This document shows positions 11,626-32,792 of a DNA stretch of 45,926 nt, in pieces; positions within the stretch are counted from its first letter, which is position 1, and each line of letters begins with the position of its first letter. The notes under the pieces are model-generated. The model saw only the letters and a list, made by a program, of their open reading frames with translations. It did no database searches and was not told the DNA's origin. Source of the DNA: a virus; UHGV virus genome UHGV-0253013. The stretch is one strand, 5' to 3'. A program made the translations under genes and the position numbers.

Positions 11626-12276
11626 ATGATGCCAACCGAAAAAGTAGCCAAGAGCATGTGGCTGCGTGCGAATTATCCTGCGAACAAAAGCAGCAAAACT
11701 AAGCGTGCAACTATATGCGATTTTGGCATAAATGACGCCGATTATGTGGTTAGCCCCAAGATAAACGGCAAACGTGAGACGTGTCTGGCGTACGCTACAT
11801 GGAGAGGGATGATCCAACGTTGTGTGGACGCCGAGTATAAAAACAAAAGGCCTGCGTACAGGGATGTAACTGTGTGGCATGGGTGGCAAAGGTTTATGTC
11901 CTTCCGTGGATGGTGGATTTGTAATTATGTGGAGGGATGGGAGCTAGATAAGGACATATTCTCTGGTATTAATAAGGAATACAGCCCTACCACTTGCGTT
12001 TTCATCCCGAAGTGGTTGAATGTTTTCCTGCAGGAAAAGAAAAATAGTGGAACACCTACAGGTGTTTTTTATGAAGAATCTAGAGGTAAATTTAAAGCCT
12101 CAGTTAGCTATGGTAAAAAAACTATTAATCTAGGACGTTTTGAAACTCAGGAAGAAGCGCTAGATGCCTACATTGCTGAAAAGATAAGGGTGGCGGAATC
12201 AAGAAGATGTGAGATAGAGGCGATAAGGGAAGGTATGTTCGACCGCGTTATCGCCCTGATAAAAGAGGGACGTTAG
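11626..12276 (+). CDS. AP2-domain homing-endonuclease-like protein, opposite strand inside the tail module
   Basis: ATG ATG at 11626 preceded by AGGAG; C-terminal GVFYEESRGKFKASVSYGKKTINLGRFETQEEALDAYIAEK is AP2-like; N-terminal domain not assigned. Confidence 0.5.
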   Translation: MMPTEKVAKSMWLRANYPANKSSKTKRATICDFGINDADYVVSPKINGKRETCLAYATWRGMIQRCVDAEYKNKRPAYRDVTVWHGWQRFMSFRGWWICNYVEGWELDKDIFSGINKEYSPTTCVFIPKWLNVFLQEKKNSGTPTGVFYEESRGKFKASVSYGKKTINLGRFETQEEALDAYIAEKIRVAESRRCEIEAIREGMFDRVIALIKEGR

Positions 12277-19510: not shown

Positions 19511-19866
19511 TTTCTCACCTGAATAAAGTAGGCCACGACATCATCGTTAACCATCTTCTTCTCGATGGCTACAACAGACCATTGCTCGCCGCCGAATTGC
19601 ACCTTGTCTTCCATCTTCGGAACGACGCTGTAATCGGCTTTAACAATCATGTCACCCGCCTTAATCGTCGTACCGTTTACCAGTCCCGCGTTTACCGGAA
19701 CAGGAACGGCCTTCAACGGCAACACTTCATCCGCAGACCAGACATACTCACCGAGAACTTCATCCCACACTTTCGATCCAGCGCGAACAAGATATACCGT
19801 ACTACCGAATTTGGTTAGCAGGCGCGTACCCACGCCTTGCATACGTTTACTGAAAGCTGTGCCCAT
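19507..19866 (-). CDS. neck / head completion protein
   Basis: Start placed at the internal Met giving a 1-nt overlap with the upstream stop; synteny. Confidence 0.4.
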   Translation of the reverse strand: MGTAFSKRMQGVGTRLLTKFGSTVYLVRAGSKVWDEVLGEYVWSADEVLPLKAVPVPVNAGLVNGTTIKAGDMIVKADYSVVPKMEDKVQFGGEQWSVVAIEKKMVNDDVVAYFIQVRK

Positions 19867-20480
19867 TACGCGGCCTCCAGTCTCGAAATAACCAGTAGTG
19901 CTGACGGGGCGGTACCCCATGCGGTTACCGTAGCTGCTTGCGGGTATACGCCGCCGAAGTTAGTCCCGGCGCTATCCCGCATAATCTGAACGGAAAACGT
20001 CTGGCCTGCGGTTGCGTTAATAACGACGCGAGATTCAATCGGGATTGTAGTATCAGCATTTACCAGTTTAGTAGCTGCTGGCGAGCCGTACTGTGCGCCG
20101 TTAAGAAGAATGCGCGATAACAGGACGGACGTCCCGCTCGCTCCAGAGCGACCGGCCTGTAACTTGATGCGAACGGTGTAGTTGCCCGCAGTGTTGAACG
20201 TAACCAGACCCGCTGCATTAATCATTACCGGGTCAGATGCGCTACCATGCGCGGGACCGAAAGTTAACTGCAATGCTGTGTCCACTGCGGATGGTGCTTG
20301 TATTACAGCGGACGCGGCACGGAGAACTTCAACCTCTTTAACGCCAGGAGTGGCGTAAATAGGTGAGTCAGCCATCTGCGTAAGAACACCGCGCAGCTTG
20401 GCCGGGGTGATAAGCCCCGTCGTATTGTCGGGTAACTCCTGCCCTATAAGGGTAAATATCTCAGATTTAGTCTTCACCAT
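19866..20480 (-). CDS. structural protein of the head-tail joining region
   Basis: 204 aa ORF in the neck block; no motif recognised. Confidence 0.4.
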   Translation of the reverse strand: MVKTKSEIFTLIGQELPDNTTGLITPAKLRGVLTQMADSPIYATPGVKEVEVLRAASAVIQAPSAVDTALQLTFGPAHGSASDPVMINAAGLVTFNTAGNYTVRIKLQAGRSGASGTSVLLSRILLNGAQYGSPAATKLVNADTTIPIESRVVINATAGQTFSVQIMRDSAGTNFGGVYPQAATVTAWGTAPSALLVISRLEAA

Positions 20481-24307: not shown

Positions 24308-24350
24308 AGCTTAGCACATTTTTAGTGAAAAGTCAACTATTCGAATAGTT
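24308..24350 (-). promoter_or_regulatory. candidate promoter (TTGACT-N17-TAAGCT, minus strand) with a perfect 16-bp palindrome over the -35
   Basis: Plus-strand AACTATTCGAATAGTT (24335-24350) is a perfect palindrome of GAATAGTT half-sites; reverse complement gives TTGACT, 17 nt, TAAGCT. Confidence 0.35.
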
Positions 24351-28874: not shown

Positions 28875-29029
28875 AGATATAGACCCTCGGGTATGGGTGT
28901 CAAAAGCCTAATAAAAATTAGGTTGCAAGTCACCAGAAACTCGCTACTGCGAGTTTTACTTGCACCGGGCTGGCGGTCAATATATCTTATCATTAAGCAG
29001 ATAAAAATGAATTGTTGGAGGGGATACGT

Positions 29030-30409
29030 ATGGGCAGAAGAATAACTGAAGAAGAAATCAAAAACCGGTTAGCTATGTTTGGGTTTAAATTGGTTGAATA
29101 TGGCGGGTCGCAAGTAGCAAAATCCGTTATAAAATGCCCCAATGGACACGAGGAATTGAAGTCGCTTAACACCTTCACGGCTAATGGTGTGCGCTGTAAA
29201 TCTTGCGCTGCTGCTGAAAGGAGTCTGGCGTACAGCACCGACGAGACCGAAGCGAGAAGGATAGTCGAGGACATGGGGTATTCGCTGATAAAATACGGCG
29301 GCAATTTGTACCGCAAAAAATCTACCGTCCAATGTGCAAACGGTCATGTGCGCGAAGTTCGCATAGGAAATATGGTTAAGGGTCATCGCTGCAAAAAGTG
29401 CGTGGCGGAAGCAATGTGTTTGGCGGAAGACGTGGTTAACACCAGACTACCAGATGGGGTCAAGATGGATTTTTACTGCGGCAACACGCGGGGGCTTAGT
29501 CTATTTTCTTGCGAAAAAGGGCACTCGTGGTCCGCATCCGTGAATAACGTAGTGTCTCAACAAACGAAATGTCCTAAATGCTCTAATAACGTAAGTGGTA
29601 TGGAAAAAGAAGTTCTGTCGTTTATCCGCGGAGTATACCCAGGTGTTGTCAATACGTCCGTACGGTCGCTTATCTCGCCGTTTGAGCTGGACATAGTATT
29701 GCCGGAGATTAAGGTGGCCATAGAATTTAACGGCATCTATTGGCATTCCGAGGCGAATGGTAAACACCGTAACTACCACATAAATAAGAGATTAGCGTGT
29801 GAGAAACTTGGGTACAGGCTGATAAGCGTACGAAGCGACCTTTGGTTAGAGAAGCGAGAGCATGTTGAGCGCATTTTGAAGAACGCGGTAGGGGTACGTA
29901 CTGTGTCTATTTTTGCCAGAAAATGTCGTGTGGTAGAGATAGCCAACAAAGACGCATTCCAGTTCTGTGAGGACAATCACATCCAGGGTGGGACAAAGGC
30001 TACAAAAGCGTATGCATTACTTCACGCTGGTGAGGTGGTTGCGGTAATGACTTTGGTACATTGGCGCCGCAAGGACTCATGGGAACTGGTGCGATATTGC
30101 ACCAGTACGTCCGTGCCCGGTGGCCTAAGTAAGCTGTGGAAACATGTGACGCAAGAAAACAACATTAAGCAAGCGTTCACTTATACCGACCGTGACCTTT
30201 TCACCGGTGCATCTTACGCAGAAGCTGGGTTTATATTTGATAGCTGCTCCGTAGGGTTTCGCGTTGTCGTAGGAACTCGTACAGAATCCCGCCAGAAATG
30301 GGGCAAAGCTCCCGAGGGTCTTACCCAAACAGAGTGGTACGAACGAGAAAAAGTGTCGCGCATATGGGATAGCGGTCAGGATAAGTGGGAATGGGTTAAA
30401 GGGGCATAA
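29030..30409 (+). CDS. putative homing endonuclease: three Zn-ribbon-like repeats plus DUF559/Vsr-like nuclease domain
   Basis: ATG at 29030 after GGAGGGG. Repeats CPNGHEELKS...CKSC, CANGHVREV...CKKC, CEKGHSWS...CPKC; then ELDIVLPEIKVAIEFNGIYWHSE; opposite strand between portal and terminase. Confidence 0.5.
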   Translation: MGRRITEEEIKNRLAMFGFKLVEYGGSQVAKSVIKCPNGHEELKSLNTFTANGVRCKSCAAAERSLAYSTDETEARRIVEDMGYSLIKYGGNLYRKKSTVQCANGHVREVRIGNMVKGHRCKKCVAEAMCLAEDVVNTRLPDGVKMDFYCGNTRGLSLFSCEKGHSWSASVNNVVSQQTKCPKCSNNVSGMEKEVLSFIRGVYPGVVNTSVRSLISPFELDIVLPEIKVAIEFNGIYWHSEANGKHRNYHINKRLACEKLGYRLISVRSDLWLEKREHVERILKNAVGVRTVSIFARKCRVVEIANKDAFQFCEDNHIQGGTKATKAYALLHAGEVVAVMTLVHWRRKDSWELVRYCTSTSVPGGLSKLWKHVTQENNIKQAFTYTDRDLFTGASYAEAGFIFDSCSVGFRVVVGTRTESRQKWGKAPEGLTQTEWYEREKVSRIWDSGQDKWEWVKGA

Positions 30410-30421: not shown

Positions 30422-31672
30422 TTAAAGTGCGAAAGTCACCGGGATGTTGATTACTGGTTTAACCACCGGCATCTCGTAAACTACAGGATAGCCGAGAGCA
30501 TCCGCCATATGGTCAATGATGCCATCTTTAGCGGGCTCCCCGTTATCGTCGTATGCCTGCTGCTCCAGCGTCTTGGCTATCTCAGGACATAAGTGGTCGT
30601 TAACCCACAGCTTACCTTTTTCCAGCGCGGTATTCACTGCTAAAACACGGTCTTTAACCGGGGGGTTGGCGGATTTAGCGCGAACATCGAACCCGGCCTG
30701 CTGGAGTAAGGCGATGTCAGAGATTGACGCCGAGTTGGTTTTGCGGTTCTTGCCGCTGGCGTCCGGGTAAACGACGATGCGGTGGCCTTGCGACTTCCAC
30801 TTCTCAGTAATTACGCGCACGGTATCCGGCGTATCGAACAAGCCTTTCAGTTCTGCTACCGCGTGCCAGCCGTCTTTACGCTGCACATACACAGCGCTGG
30901 CGTTCTTCGTAACGTTGAAGTCCTGCCCGATGTACAGTGTGTCGCCTGGCTGGATTGTCTCTTTGCTGCGGTGCTTGTGGCGGTCGTAGGCGTAATACAC
31001 GCTGCCGGAGGTCAGGTTGACGAACTCACCGTTAAGGTACGCGTTAATCAGTTGCGCCGGGTAAGTCTCAGTCAGCGAGCTAATGTAATCCGGCGGCAGG
31101 AATCGCGCGTTCTCGTGTGTGGAGGCCTGCACCATCGAGTAACTCGGTGTCGGGTTCTCTTTGAACTTGGCGTAGACGAACTTGAACCCTTCAGGTGTCG
31201 TGGTGACGGAGATGTGGTTGGTTACTCCGGGGATAACCAGACGCATACGGGCGACGATTTTGTTCCATGCCAGTTCAGCTTTTTCTCGGCTCAGTACGTC
31301 CAGTTCATCCACGACCGCGGCGGCGATTTTGAAACCCACAATCGAACCGGGGTTATCCATAGAACGACAGATAACCGTTCCGAGCACCGTCTTACCGCGA
31401 GTAACCACGACCTCTTTGTCTCCGGATTTAACCAGCACATCGAGGCCGAGGAGGTTAGCCGCCTCTTCGAATGTCGGGTAGAAGATGTCGCGGATAGCTG
31501 GGTATGTCGGGCCGAAGTAGCCGAGGCGCGTACCGGGGTGCTTGAGCATAAACGTAAGCAGGTCCAGACAGCCGACAAATGTCTTGCCGCTGCCGAAACC
31601 GCCGACATAGGCTTTGTATTTGTTATCGCAATTCAGAAACAATGCCTGAGGGGCCGATAGCTGAATACTCAT
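30422..31672 (-). CDS. terminase large subunit
   Basis: Walker A GGFGSGKT near the N-terminus, 416 aa, directly downstream of the small-subunit gene. Confidence 0.8.
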   Translation of the reverse strand: MSIQLSAPQALFLNCDNKYKAYVGGFGSGKTFVGCLDLLTFMLKHPGTRLGYFGPTYPAIRDIFYPTFEEAANLLGLDVLVKSGDKEVVVTRGKTVLGTVICRSMDNPGSIVGFKIAAAVVDELDVLSREKAELAWNKIVARMRLVIPGVTNHISVTTTPEGFKFVYAKFKENPTPSYSMVQASTHENARFLPPDYISSLTETYPAQLINAYLNGEFVNLTSGSVYYAYDRHKHRSKETIQPGDTLYIGQDFNVTKNASAVYVQRKDGWHAVAELKGLFDTPDTVRVITEKWKSQGHRIVVYPDASGKNRKTNSASISDIALLQQAGFDVRAKSANPPVKDRVLAVNTALEKGKLWVNDHLCPEIAKTLEQQAYDDNGEPAKDGIIDHMADALGYPVVYEMPVVKPVINIPVTFAL

Positions 31673-32214
31673 TCCTCTACCTCGCCCATGTTCGTTGTTA
31701 CGATTTTACCTACAGGCTCCGCAACACTGAAAACAATCTCGGTCGGTGCTATTTCTTCGGTGGATTCAACCGGTTTCTCTTTGCTAAGGCCAAGCTTAGC
31801 TGCGGCAAACGTAGCAGAGATACCCGCAGCCCCTGTCTCTGTGAAGTACGCCTCTTCCAGCGCCTGCGCCGTTTCATAGGCTTCTGCAAATGCGGGAATC
31901 TCGCGCAGCCACAGCTTAATAATTGGGATAGTGACGCCGATGTGTAAGGCGAAGCGGGCCAGTGACGGCGGTTTATCCTGAATCAGCGGGCGTTCGTCAC
32001 CCTTGGATGTAGGCACGAGTTCCCACGACGAGCGGTCGAAGAAGCGAATCAGTTCGTCGCAATAGTCCGGGTCCCACAACGCGGCGGAATTACGGGATGA
32101 TTGATAAAGGCTCTGTTTACCGCGCGGTCGTTTACGGCGACGGTTTGCGCTAACAGCTTCTTCATGTGCAGCTTGCACCACCTCTGGCGATGGCTGCTTG
32201 AGTTTCAGCTTCAT
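31669..32214 (-). CDS. terminase small subunit
   Basis: Basic N-terminal region; ATGA-coupled to the large subunit. Start moved to the ATG at 32214 preceded by AAGGGGA. Confidence 0.5.
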   Translation of the reverse strand: MKLKLKQPSPEVVQAAHEEAVSANRRRKRPRGKQSLYQSSRNSAALWDPDYCDELIRFFDRSSWELVPTSKGDERPLIQDKPPSLARFALHIGVTIPIIKLWLREIPAFAEAYETAQALEEAYFTETGAAGISATFAAAKLGLSKEKPVESTEEIAPTEIVFSVAEPVGKIVTTNMGEVEE

Positions 32215-32386
32215 AGAATCCCCTTGCATATGCGTCTGACCATCAGAGCGCACCAGACGCGCCCTACGCGTCTAAAGGGATTATATAAGGGGATTGGGCG
32301 GGATGTACAGAAAAGCCCTCAGTAGAGGGCTTGTATCAGTTATATAGGCCGTGTCGTGGTGCTCTTTTACCGTCTCCGCCGTAATG

Positions 32387-32402
32387 GCCGTTAGCTAACG
32401 GC
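32387..32402. repeat. perfect 16-bp palindrome GCCGTTAGCTAACGGC upstream of the terminase genes
   Basis: Exact self-complementary 16-mer in the 275-nt non-coding stretch between the early genes and the small terminase gene. Confidence 0.6.
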
Positions 32403-32528
32403 AATAGCCCGGGCGTACATGAAATGATAAAGTTTCATAGTTATAATACTGCCTGTATAGTTTTAAGAAGGCCGTAGGAGTGCAAAATTACCGCTGTCAT
32501 AAACCCGAATGCAGCGCCCCACATAAAT

Positions 32529-32792
32529 TTATTCATCCCCGCTCCCCTCTTTAGCAATGCGTTGCTCAGTTTTAGTGATACCACGGCGCGTGAATAACAC
32601 CGGGCTTGTCTTAACGTGCGTCATGAGACGATTGTTATAAATTACGTGGCGCTCGCAGTTCACGTCTTTGCTGTACTTCGCAATCGTCATTTCGTTGATG
32701 CCGGTTTGTCGGCACGTCTCCGCCATCGTGCCAAATTCTTTAATCAGGTTCGGAATGCTGGTAATCATCCTAAGAAATTCCTCGTTGTCCAC
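32529..32792 (-). CDS. small HTH-like protein
   Basis: 87 aa; ETCRQTGINEMTIAKYSK resembles a helix-turn-helix. Confidence 0.35.
   Translation of the reverse strand: MDNEEFLRMITSIPNLIKEFGTMAETCRQTGINEMTIAKYSKDVNCERHVIYNNRLMTHVKTSPVLFTRRGITKTEQRIAKEGSGDE

Follow-up and report, generated by a model that had tools for sequence, protein, structure and literature searches.

The window analyzed here, a stretch of 45,926 nucleotides (UHGV virus genome UHGV-0253013), is a Kagunavirus-like (Guernseyvirinae) siphophage. It matches Kagunavirus phages (subfamily Guernseyvirinae: K1G, K1H, BUCT789, BASEL Bas70-76, and others) at 92-96% DNA identity, and the Salmonella Jerseyvirus phages show about 75% DNA identity to it. 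No match to the window was found in the complete E. coli genomes, and it is thus not a prophage region. Around the interval under study, the genes are all encoded on the minus strand. The interval is preceded by a NinH-like gene (32529..32792), the last of appreciable size before it, which matched phrog_268 (E = 5.5e-31) and the Pfam family Phage_NinH (E = 1.8e-4, below the Pfam curated cutoff), and relatives carry an annotated NinH protein at the equivalent position. Downstream lie terS, encoding the small terminase (31669..32214, 181 aa; phrog_3064 "terminase", E = 4.8e-73), and terL, encoding the large terminase (30422..31672, 416 aa; Pfam Terminase_6N, E = 3.8e-21, and Terminase_6C, E = 5.7e-11).

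The region upstream of terS was aligned among 39 distinct relatives from IMG/VR, to which GenBank phages were added afterwards; a second IMG/VR scan, with a terS alignment as the query, returned the same loci as the first. Three zones emerged from the alignment, at positions 32417-32524, 32336-32416 (where the coding sequence continues to an ATG at 32438), and 32332-32215. The zone closest to terS was present in all aligned relatives, and its 5' edge coincides exactly with a mosaic breakpoint, which directly precedes the stem of the terminator described below.

The preliminary description presented the 275 nt upstream of the terminase genes as non-coding, but about 70% of this stretch proved to be coding or pseudo-coding, being taken up by the body of a 31-aa open reading frame (ORF; 32528..32441) and by a frameshifted 33-aa gene (32438..32336). 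The 31-aa ORF (32441..32536, minus strand) encodes the hydrophobic peptide MNKFMWGAAFGFMTAVILHSYGLLKTIQAVL, is preceded by a GGAG-type ribosome-binding site, and has an ATG that overlaps the ninH stop codon (ATGAATAA). This arrangement would be that of a membrane-type micro-gene translationally coupled to ninH. At the DNA level, positions 32417-32524 had no match among 50,697 phage records, and an exact-pattern scan of IMG/VR for the segment unique to the window found nothing. At the protein level, 32 Kagunavirus records contain a full-length homologue (68% identical), flanked there by the neck and head-tail connector genes. Only one copy of the ORF exists in the window, none being present at the window's own neck/connector position, and the Salmonella phage SenTO17 carries a homologue directly after ninH, as in the window. 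Judged by this distribution, with homologues between the neck and connector genes in Kagunavirus and after ninH in SenTO17, the 31-aa ORF is a genuine micro-gene, mobile between loci.

The second ORF (32336..32438, minus strand) represents phrog_32259, a conserved 33-aa gene, in a frameshifted form. As sequenced, it reads MKLYHFMYARAIAVS*, and its frame (ATG AAA CTT TAT CAT TTC ATG TAC GCC CGG GCT ATT GCC GTT AGC TAA) stops after 15 codons, leaving no intact ORF. Removal of a single T restores a 33-aa product, MKLYHFMYARAIAVANGHYGGDGKRAPRHGLYN, and only in this form is the phrog_32259 profile matched over its full length (1-33/33, E = 3.4e-10). About 25 of the 39 relatives carry the 33-aa ORF, which reads MRLLIIPNAWAIAVANDHYGGDGKRAPRHGLYN there and is annotated as a CDS in BUCT789, Bas73, and phiEc4. 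Relatives yielded 27 distinct alleles, each of them intact, and their variable sites at the first, second, and third codon positions number 14, 13, and 27 of 33, respectively, which is a coding signature. Many relatives have no phrog_32259 segment adjoining terS, and the gene is thus dispensable.

The first seven codons of this gene (ATG AAA CTT TAT CAT TTC ATG) account for the inverted repeat ATGAAA-N8-TTTCAT, which is present at 32419-32438 (minus strand) as described previously. Folded as RNA, this repeat is weak (-3.3 kcal/mol), and it is not conserved: the matches of relatives end at 32416, and 32417-32438 belongs to the stretch for which no phage match was found. The repeat thus sits at the junction between the conserved small-gene segment and a stretch unique to the window phage. 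Two promoter-like hits were also returned by the scanner on the plus strand, at 32419-32447 and 32434-32461. They fall in the non-conserved, AT-rich junction and are antisense to all genes, and were treated as chance matches.

The perfect 16-bp palindrome GCCGTTAGCTAACGGC is likewise present at 32387-32402, 173 nt upstream of the terS ATG. It spans codons 13-17 (A V A N G) of the 33-aa gene together with the inserted T. In all cases, the relatives carrying the segment read GCCG-TAGCTAACGAC, an imperfect palindrome: their codons GCC GTA GCT AAC GAC (A-V-A-N-D) form a quasi-palindrome, and the window reads GCC GTT AGC TAA CGG C. The perfect symmetry comes from an extra T (32397/32398) and an A>G change at 32388, neither of which was found in any allele among the relatives. 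No other copy of the palindromic allele was recovered by exact-pattern scans of IMG/VR and the JGI metagenomes, and no second copy was found in the window when up to 3 mismatches were allowed. Because the allele is absent from the relatives, IMG/VR, and the JGI metagenomes, the palindrome is, on comparative grounds, a private and derived feature of the window sequence, located inside a gene whose frame it breaks. Its size is not beyond chance at the scale of the window. The 46-kb window contains three perfect 16-bp palindromes vs. 0.7-0.85 expected, and at least one was present in 61% of Markov-simulated windows. As RNA, the palindrome folds into a hairpin of -7.7 kcal/mol (z = -1.4).

The palindrome had been put forward as the site of a dimeric protein, either the small terminase at a packaging (pac) site or a transcription regulator. 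Its perfect symmetry and its position 173 nt from the terS start would fit such a role, for which the pac elements of phage SPP1 near terS offer a precedent. However, once conservation across related phages was examined, the palindrome turned out to be imperfect, or its segment absent, in all relatives. Phages with 91-98% identical terS read GCCG-TAGCTAACGAC instead, many relatives lack the whole segment next to terS, and the site lies within a gene bearing a clear coding signature. Together with the lack of a second copy, the absence of the allele elsewhere, and the chance expectation for a palindrome of this size, these comparative data largely refute a binding or packaging site, which we regard as highly improbable; as pac in particular, the palindrome would be excluded on conservation grounds. 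It would rather be a by-product of coding GCC GTA GCT AAC GAC than a functional site, and it does not seem worth pursuing as a packaging site or an operator.

How the palindrome was perfected is a separate matter. The extra T and the A>G change are the only changes shared with no relative in an 81-nt stretch, and both raise the symmetry. If they were independent, their coincidence would have a chance of about 1% by our own rough estimate, which suggests a templated quasi-palindrome "correction" mutation. Template-switch events of this kind have reportedly been described in T4 and yeast (Ripley) and in thyA of E. coli (Lovett and colleagues). As in these systems, an imperfect repeat in the window has been perfected by clustered changes that include a +1 frameshift. 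Unlike a simple correction, however, the two changes lie on opposite arms, and a single one-directional template switch cannot explain both. The palindrome may thus have arisen by such a mutation, or from a sequencing indel together with one substitution, and a sequencing error combined with coincidence is possible at this site.

It is indeed conceivable, if on the whole somewhat doubtful, that the extra T stems from an indel error in sequencing or assembly and that the phage itself carries the 33-aa gene intact, with only a 15-nt quasi-palindrome. Deleting this one base yields a full-length phrog_32259 protein of exactly the family length, the insertion is absent from the aligned relatives and from every other sequence in IMG/VR and the JGI metagenomes, and all 27 distinct alleles of the relatives are intact. 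However, a change from T to TT does not create a long homopolymer and is thus not a typical error site. Moreover, the A>G at 32388, the only other private change in the 81 nt, likewise completes the symmetry, which fits a templated mutation better, and the absence of the gene next to terS in many relatives shows it to be dispensable.

Among the three motifs flagged previously, only the hairpin at 32315-32330 is clearly non-random. Its position and the T-run that follows it on the minus strand (32314..32311) are as originally reported, and it reads GCCCTC-AGTA-GAGGGC. It corresponds to a predicted intrinsic (rho-independent) terminator (32309..32332, minus strand), in which the stem at 32330..32315 (GCCCUC-UACU-GAGGGC) is extended by two A-U pairs and followed by UUUUCUGU; the RNA thus reads AAGCCCUC-UACU-GAGGGCUU, then UUCUGU. 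The hairpin has a folding energy of -14.1 kcal/mol (z = -4.9), and no shuffled sequence folded as well. Seven variants from three clades were folded, and all had energies of -12.4 to -15.4 kcal/mol. The fifth pair of the stem changes in a compensatory manner from U-A to G-C in 5 of the 21 aligned sequences and to G-U in one, and the loop varies freely (UACU, UACG, UACC, UAUG, UUCU, UUCC, AUAU, and others). The element thus combines a stable GC-rich stem-loop and a U-rich tract with pairing that is maintained while the loop varies. The GenBank record of the Salmonella phage PVP-SE2 (MF431252) lists a rho-independent terminator at the homologous site. The terminator scanner called the homologue in SenTO17 and made no call in the window itself, probably because the A-U extension of the stem uses part of the T-tract. 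In the cell, this terminator would stop or attenuate transcription arriving from the upstream genes.

A sigma-70-type promoter-like site (32280..32309, minus strand) abuts the T-run of the terminator. It consists of a -35 hexamer TGTACA (32309..32304), matching the consensus at 4 of 6 positions, an 18-nt spacer, and a -10 hexamer TATAAT (32285..32280), for a total of 10/12 consensus positions, and the predicted transcription start is at about 32273. At the homologous position, a Jerseyvirus has TGTACA-18-TACAAT (9/12), and SenTO17 has TTGCCT-17-TATAAT (10/12). Divergence between Kagunavirus and Jerseyvirus is 0.11 and 0.15 in the hexamers vs. 0.52 in the spacer and 0.47 at terS third codon positions, while the spacer length is kept. 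Hexamers spaced by 16-18 nt and constrained in sequence, separated by a spacer that is free in sequence and fixed in length, form the pattern expected of a promoter on evolutionary grounds. A host sigma-70-type promoter placed directly at the T-tract of the terminator would start the terminase/morphogenesis unit.

This organization resembles that of an intrinsic terminator and a sigma-70 promoter at an operon boundary: a stop codon is closely followed by a GC-rich stem of 6-8 bp, capped by a 4-nt loop and trailed by a U-tract, and a -35/-10 pair at 17-18-nt spacing comes directly downstream. It differs from a typical boundary of this kind in the short U-tract (UUUUCUGU) and in the weak match of the -35 hexamer (TGTACA). 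In phage demigod, one 6-nt deletion has removed the T-tract and half of the -35 hexamer, which are contiguous, and the rest of the region is kept. Given this natural variant, the terminator and -35 signals do not appear to be indispensable.

The extent of the leader that follows the promoter depends on where terS starts. The longest terS ORF opens at a GTG at 32253, the point at which the interval of the preliminary description ended. This longer start was rejected: it has no ribosome-binding site, indels between clades occur upstream of the ATG at 32214, and relatives annotate a terS of 546 nt. The 39 nt upstream of this ATG show inter-clade indels and RNA-type covariation; the indels rule out coding at 32215-32253. 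Since the ATG is also preceded by the Shine-Dalgarno (SD) sequence AAGGGGA and gives the 546-nt terS annotated in relatives, terS is, on these sequence features, taken to start at 32214 and not at 32253, and the leader thus reaches 32215.

The terS 5' leader (32215..32274, minus strand) contains two hairpins, HP1 (32274..32254) and HP2 (32253..32230), and the SD region AAGGGGAUU (32225..32217). Both hairpins are part of the RNAalifold consensus structure. In an alignment of 21 sequences that includes two Cornellvirus-like phages, 98.2% of the cells of the leader were paired (98.9% for HP1 and 99.5% for HP2), vs. 27-52% when the partners were slid. Changes on both sides were found at four pairs, although these stem from about three clades and thus represent few independent events, and many one-sided changes keep a G-U pair on the sense strand only. 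The 141-nt region that also includes the terminator has a minimum free energy (MFE) of -50.7 kcal/mol (z = -3.8). Judged from its diversity within Kagunavirus, which is 0.035, similar to that of first and second codon positions, vs. 0.235 at terS third positions, the leader is under strong purifying selection. Rfam 15 gave no hit in the window at the gathering threshold, the best local hits in a permissive Rfam search had E-values of 3.9-10, far below the threshold, and scans for tRNA and tmRNA found nothing.

Hairpins at the 5' end, such as that of the E. coli ompA mRNA, can protect mRNAs in other systems. In the leader of about 60 nt described here, HP1 would be 5'-terminal on the predicted mRNA, which it would most likely stabilize, and HP2 would precede an exposed SD sequence followed by the terS ATG at 32214. 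The leader resembles the ompA-type stabilizers in that a stable hairpin begins 0-2 nt from the predicted start, with another hairpin and then an accessible SD sequence downstream of it. It differs from them in that its transcription start is a predicted one, in a possible anti-SD pairing in read-through transcripts, and in having no Rfam match.

We thus consider it likely that one transcription unit ends within the interval and the terminase/morphogenesis unit begins there, the interval containing a pair of micro-genes (one of which is broken), a terminator, a promoter, and a leader, and that the palindrome is non-functional. The earlier proposal of a packaging or regulatory interval is only partly supported. 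It holds loosely, in that conserved signals that may regulate the terminase operon (the terminator, the promoter-like site, and the leader) are carried by the interval, and it does not extend to the palindrome. The local annotation can be corrected accordingly, with terS starting at 32214, two micro-genes upstream (one broken), and the terminator, promoter, and leader opening the morphogenesis operon. Such a correction may be useful to those who engineer Kagunavirus genomes; phage CM001 is cited in the BASEL paper as a synthetic-biology chassis (PMC11990801). The boundary itself is an ordinary one, conserved family-wide, and the double change that perfects the palindrome and the survival of the leader module across terS replacement, to which we turn below, are minor curiosities.

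A further pairing may link the promoter and the leader. The sequence AAUCCCU (32276..32282, minus strand), which overlaps the -10 hexamer, is complementary to the SD region GGGGAUU (32223..32217), and the two form a 7-bp long-range helix in the consensus fold. Because of this overlap, only read-through transcripts would contain the sequence. In the alignment, 95.2% of the cells of this helix are paired, a C-G pair is replaced by U-A in five sequences, and pairing is broken in four to seven cells. The anti-SD pairing is nevertheless a weak lead, because constraints on the -10 hexamer and on the SD sequence explain most of its conservation.

Taken further, this pairing could mean that there is no promoter at all and that terS is expressed by read-through of a leaky terminator, with the TATAAT-CCC sequence acting as an anti-SD and, together with HP1 and HP2, forming a three-way junction that gates terS translation. 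The pairing of AAUCCCU (32282..32276) with the SD sequence in the consensus fold and its C-G to U-A replacement in five sequences fit this model; moreover, SenTO17 keeps the pairing with one mismatch, the MFE structure of the window sequesters the SD sequence in a 9-bp helix, and phage demigod keeps the remainder of the region despite its missing T-tract and -35. However, TGTACA is invariant in Kagunavirus and Jerseyvirus, and a neutral spacer of fixed length fits a promoter and not an RNA pairing. The anti-SD pairing is also broken in the recombinant L103, among the four to seven such cells, and the conservation of both of its strands is largely due to the -10 and SD constraints. Expression of terS by RNA gating without a promoter thus appears unlikely, although an RNA gate and a promoter are not mutually exclusive.

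The two could be combined if the terminator, promoter, and leader formed a self-contained expression module, exchanged horizontally among the Guernseyvirinae, in which terS would be translated only from transcripts of its own promoter, the read-through RNA burying the ribosome-binding site in a three-way junction. This is a speculative extension to which we give little credence. If true, it would represent an undescribed RNA gate that times terminase synthesis and is conserved even where terS has been replaced. The module is about 75% identical in SenTO17 and in the Cornellvirus SP-031, where the terS that follows it shares only 28% identity with that of the window and has an unalignable N-terminus. 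A leader that outlasts the replacement of terS is, in any case, a modest and testable candidate for post-transcriptional control of the terminase.

The same observation bears on the location of the packaging site. Jerseyvirus phages package by a headful, P1-like mechanism according to PhageTerm, the position of pac not being given (PMC10783031); PhageTerm gave no termini for the Kagunavirus fBC-Eco01 (PMC9825357), and Se_F1, a phage of about 42 kb, has redundant and permuted ends at random positions (PMC9409062). In the accessible Jerseyvirus and Kagunavirus literature, we found no mapped pac site, only the descriptions "headful, P1-like" or "no termini". Near the region, GenBank records tend to begin or end at positions corresponding to 32253/32254, where the longest terS ORF has its GTG, at the ATG of terS, or at scattered points of the leader. 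These end points were rejected as physical termini, as they fall at annotation landmarks and were judged to be conventions.

In SPP1, pac elements (pacL-pacC-pacR) lie upstream of and within terS, around its start, whereas the 22-bp pac of P22 lies inside gene 3 (terS) and that of P1 inside pacA. The interval resembles these sites in its closeness to the terS start and in belonging to a group of headful phages (PMC10783031). Its palindrome differs from them in not being conserved, and its leader in not co-varying with the type of terS.

By comparison with pacL/pacR of SPP1, the leader (32215-32274), with its AGACGC/GCGTCT repeats, could be recognized as pac in the DNA itself. This non-coding DNA adjoining terS is strongly conserved (diversity of 0.035 vs. 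0.235 at synonymous-like sites), it is conserved among phages sharing the same terS, it holds both inverted and direct copies of AGACGC, and the group packages by the headful mechanism, probably with initiation at pac (PMC10783031). However, no repeated boxes like those of SPP1 or P1 were found apart from three AGACGC-like hexamers, which are explained by the RNA hairpins. Where only one partner of a pair is substituted, moreover, a G-U pair is preferentially retained on the sense strand, a signature of RNA and not of a DNA site. The leader is also retained at about 75% DNA identity ahead of the 28%-identical terS of SenTO17 and SP-031. Because a site recognized by TerS would be expected to change with terS, the conserved leader is unlikely to be pac, and we regard a DNA-level packaging role for it as improbable. 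By analogy with P22 and P1, where pac is found inside the terS gene, the pac site of the window phage perhaps lies within terS itself.

The predicted module made up of the intrinsic terminator, the sigma-70-like promoter and the two-hairpin leader of terS (32215-32332, minus strand) was found with approximately 75% DNA identity in SenTO17 (L106 449-584) and in the Cornellvirus SP-031 (L109 600-734). The terS of these two phages was only 28% identical despite the retention of the module, with the mosaic junction at the terS start codon. The module is itself mosaic on a fine scale in two Salmonella phages: in ST521_1H4 (L103), a promoter of the Kagunavirus type lies between a hairpin and a leader that are both of the Jersey type, and PHZ055 (L104) carries a small gene and hairpin of the Kagunavirus type followed by a promoter and leader of the Jersey type.

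Upstream of the module, the slot between ninH and phrog_32259, a conserved family of 33-aa genes, is a site of variable cassettes, occupied by a 31-aa ORF in the window (32441-32528), by a 90-aa ORF in phiEc4 (L112 338-610) and, in BUCT789 (L001 1381-1677), by a 98-aa "zinc finger protein". In several relatives, the terminator is adjoined instead by unrelated small genes. The order in which ninH is followed by the 31-aa hydrophobic micro-gene (32441-32536, minus strand) is common to the window phage and SenTO17 (L106 350-448), and another homologue lies at L108 901-999. In 32 other Kagunavirus records, a 68%-identical homologue separates the neck gene from the head-tail connector gene, but no copy was present at this junction in the window, where the neck gene ends at 19869 and the connector gene starts at 19866. 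The 31-aa ORF is thus a micro-gene whose locus differs between members of the family.

Within the 81-nt phrog_32259 segment, only two changes were private to the window, an additional T (32397/32398), which causes the frameshift of the gene, and an A>G substitution (32388), both given in the minus-strand sense. Both turn a quasi-palindrome into the perfect palindrome at 32387-32402, and could have arisen by a template-switch "correction" mutation, or could reflect a sequencing indel plus coincidence. Perfect 16-bp palindromes were also found at 12023-12038 (TTTTCCTGCAGGAAAA) and at 24335-24350 (AACTATTCGAATAGTT), the latter having no other copy when up to three mismatches were allowed. The excess of such palindromes in the window is marginal (three observed versus approximately 0.8 expected; our Poisson estimate, approximately 0.05).

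The minus strand of the promoter region carries AATCCC(C)TT(T)A twice in direct orientation: one copy lies within the spacer (32286-32295), the other overlaps the −10 element (32273-32282), and the Shine-Dalgarno region of terS is complementary to both. In the window, the copy in the spacer is perfectly complementary to this region over 9 nt, but it is freely variable among Kagunavirus sequences.

In Salmonella phage demigod (L110, approximately 500-530), the T-tract of the terminator is largely lost, together with half of the −35 element, through the deletion of TTCTGT (6 nt), and GCCCGC is duplicated in the terminator stem. Either the phage is a natural variant devoid of terminator or promoter, or the hairpin was wrongly assembled. 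In the record of Salmonella phage vB_SenS_TUMS_E6 (L107, approximately 596-620), the leader runs, at the expected position of the terS ATG, into the 3' end of a gene in antisense orientation that adjoins a tail-fibre gene; a mis-joined or re-oriented record seems more likely here than a biological arrangement.

Directly downstream of terL, and in the opposite direction, the window also contains a 465-aa ORF with a TTG start (29012-30409, plus strand), in which CxxC pairs are abundant.
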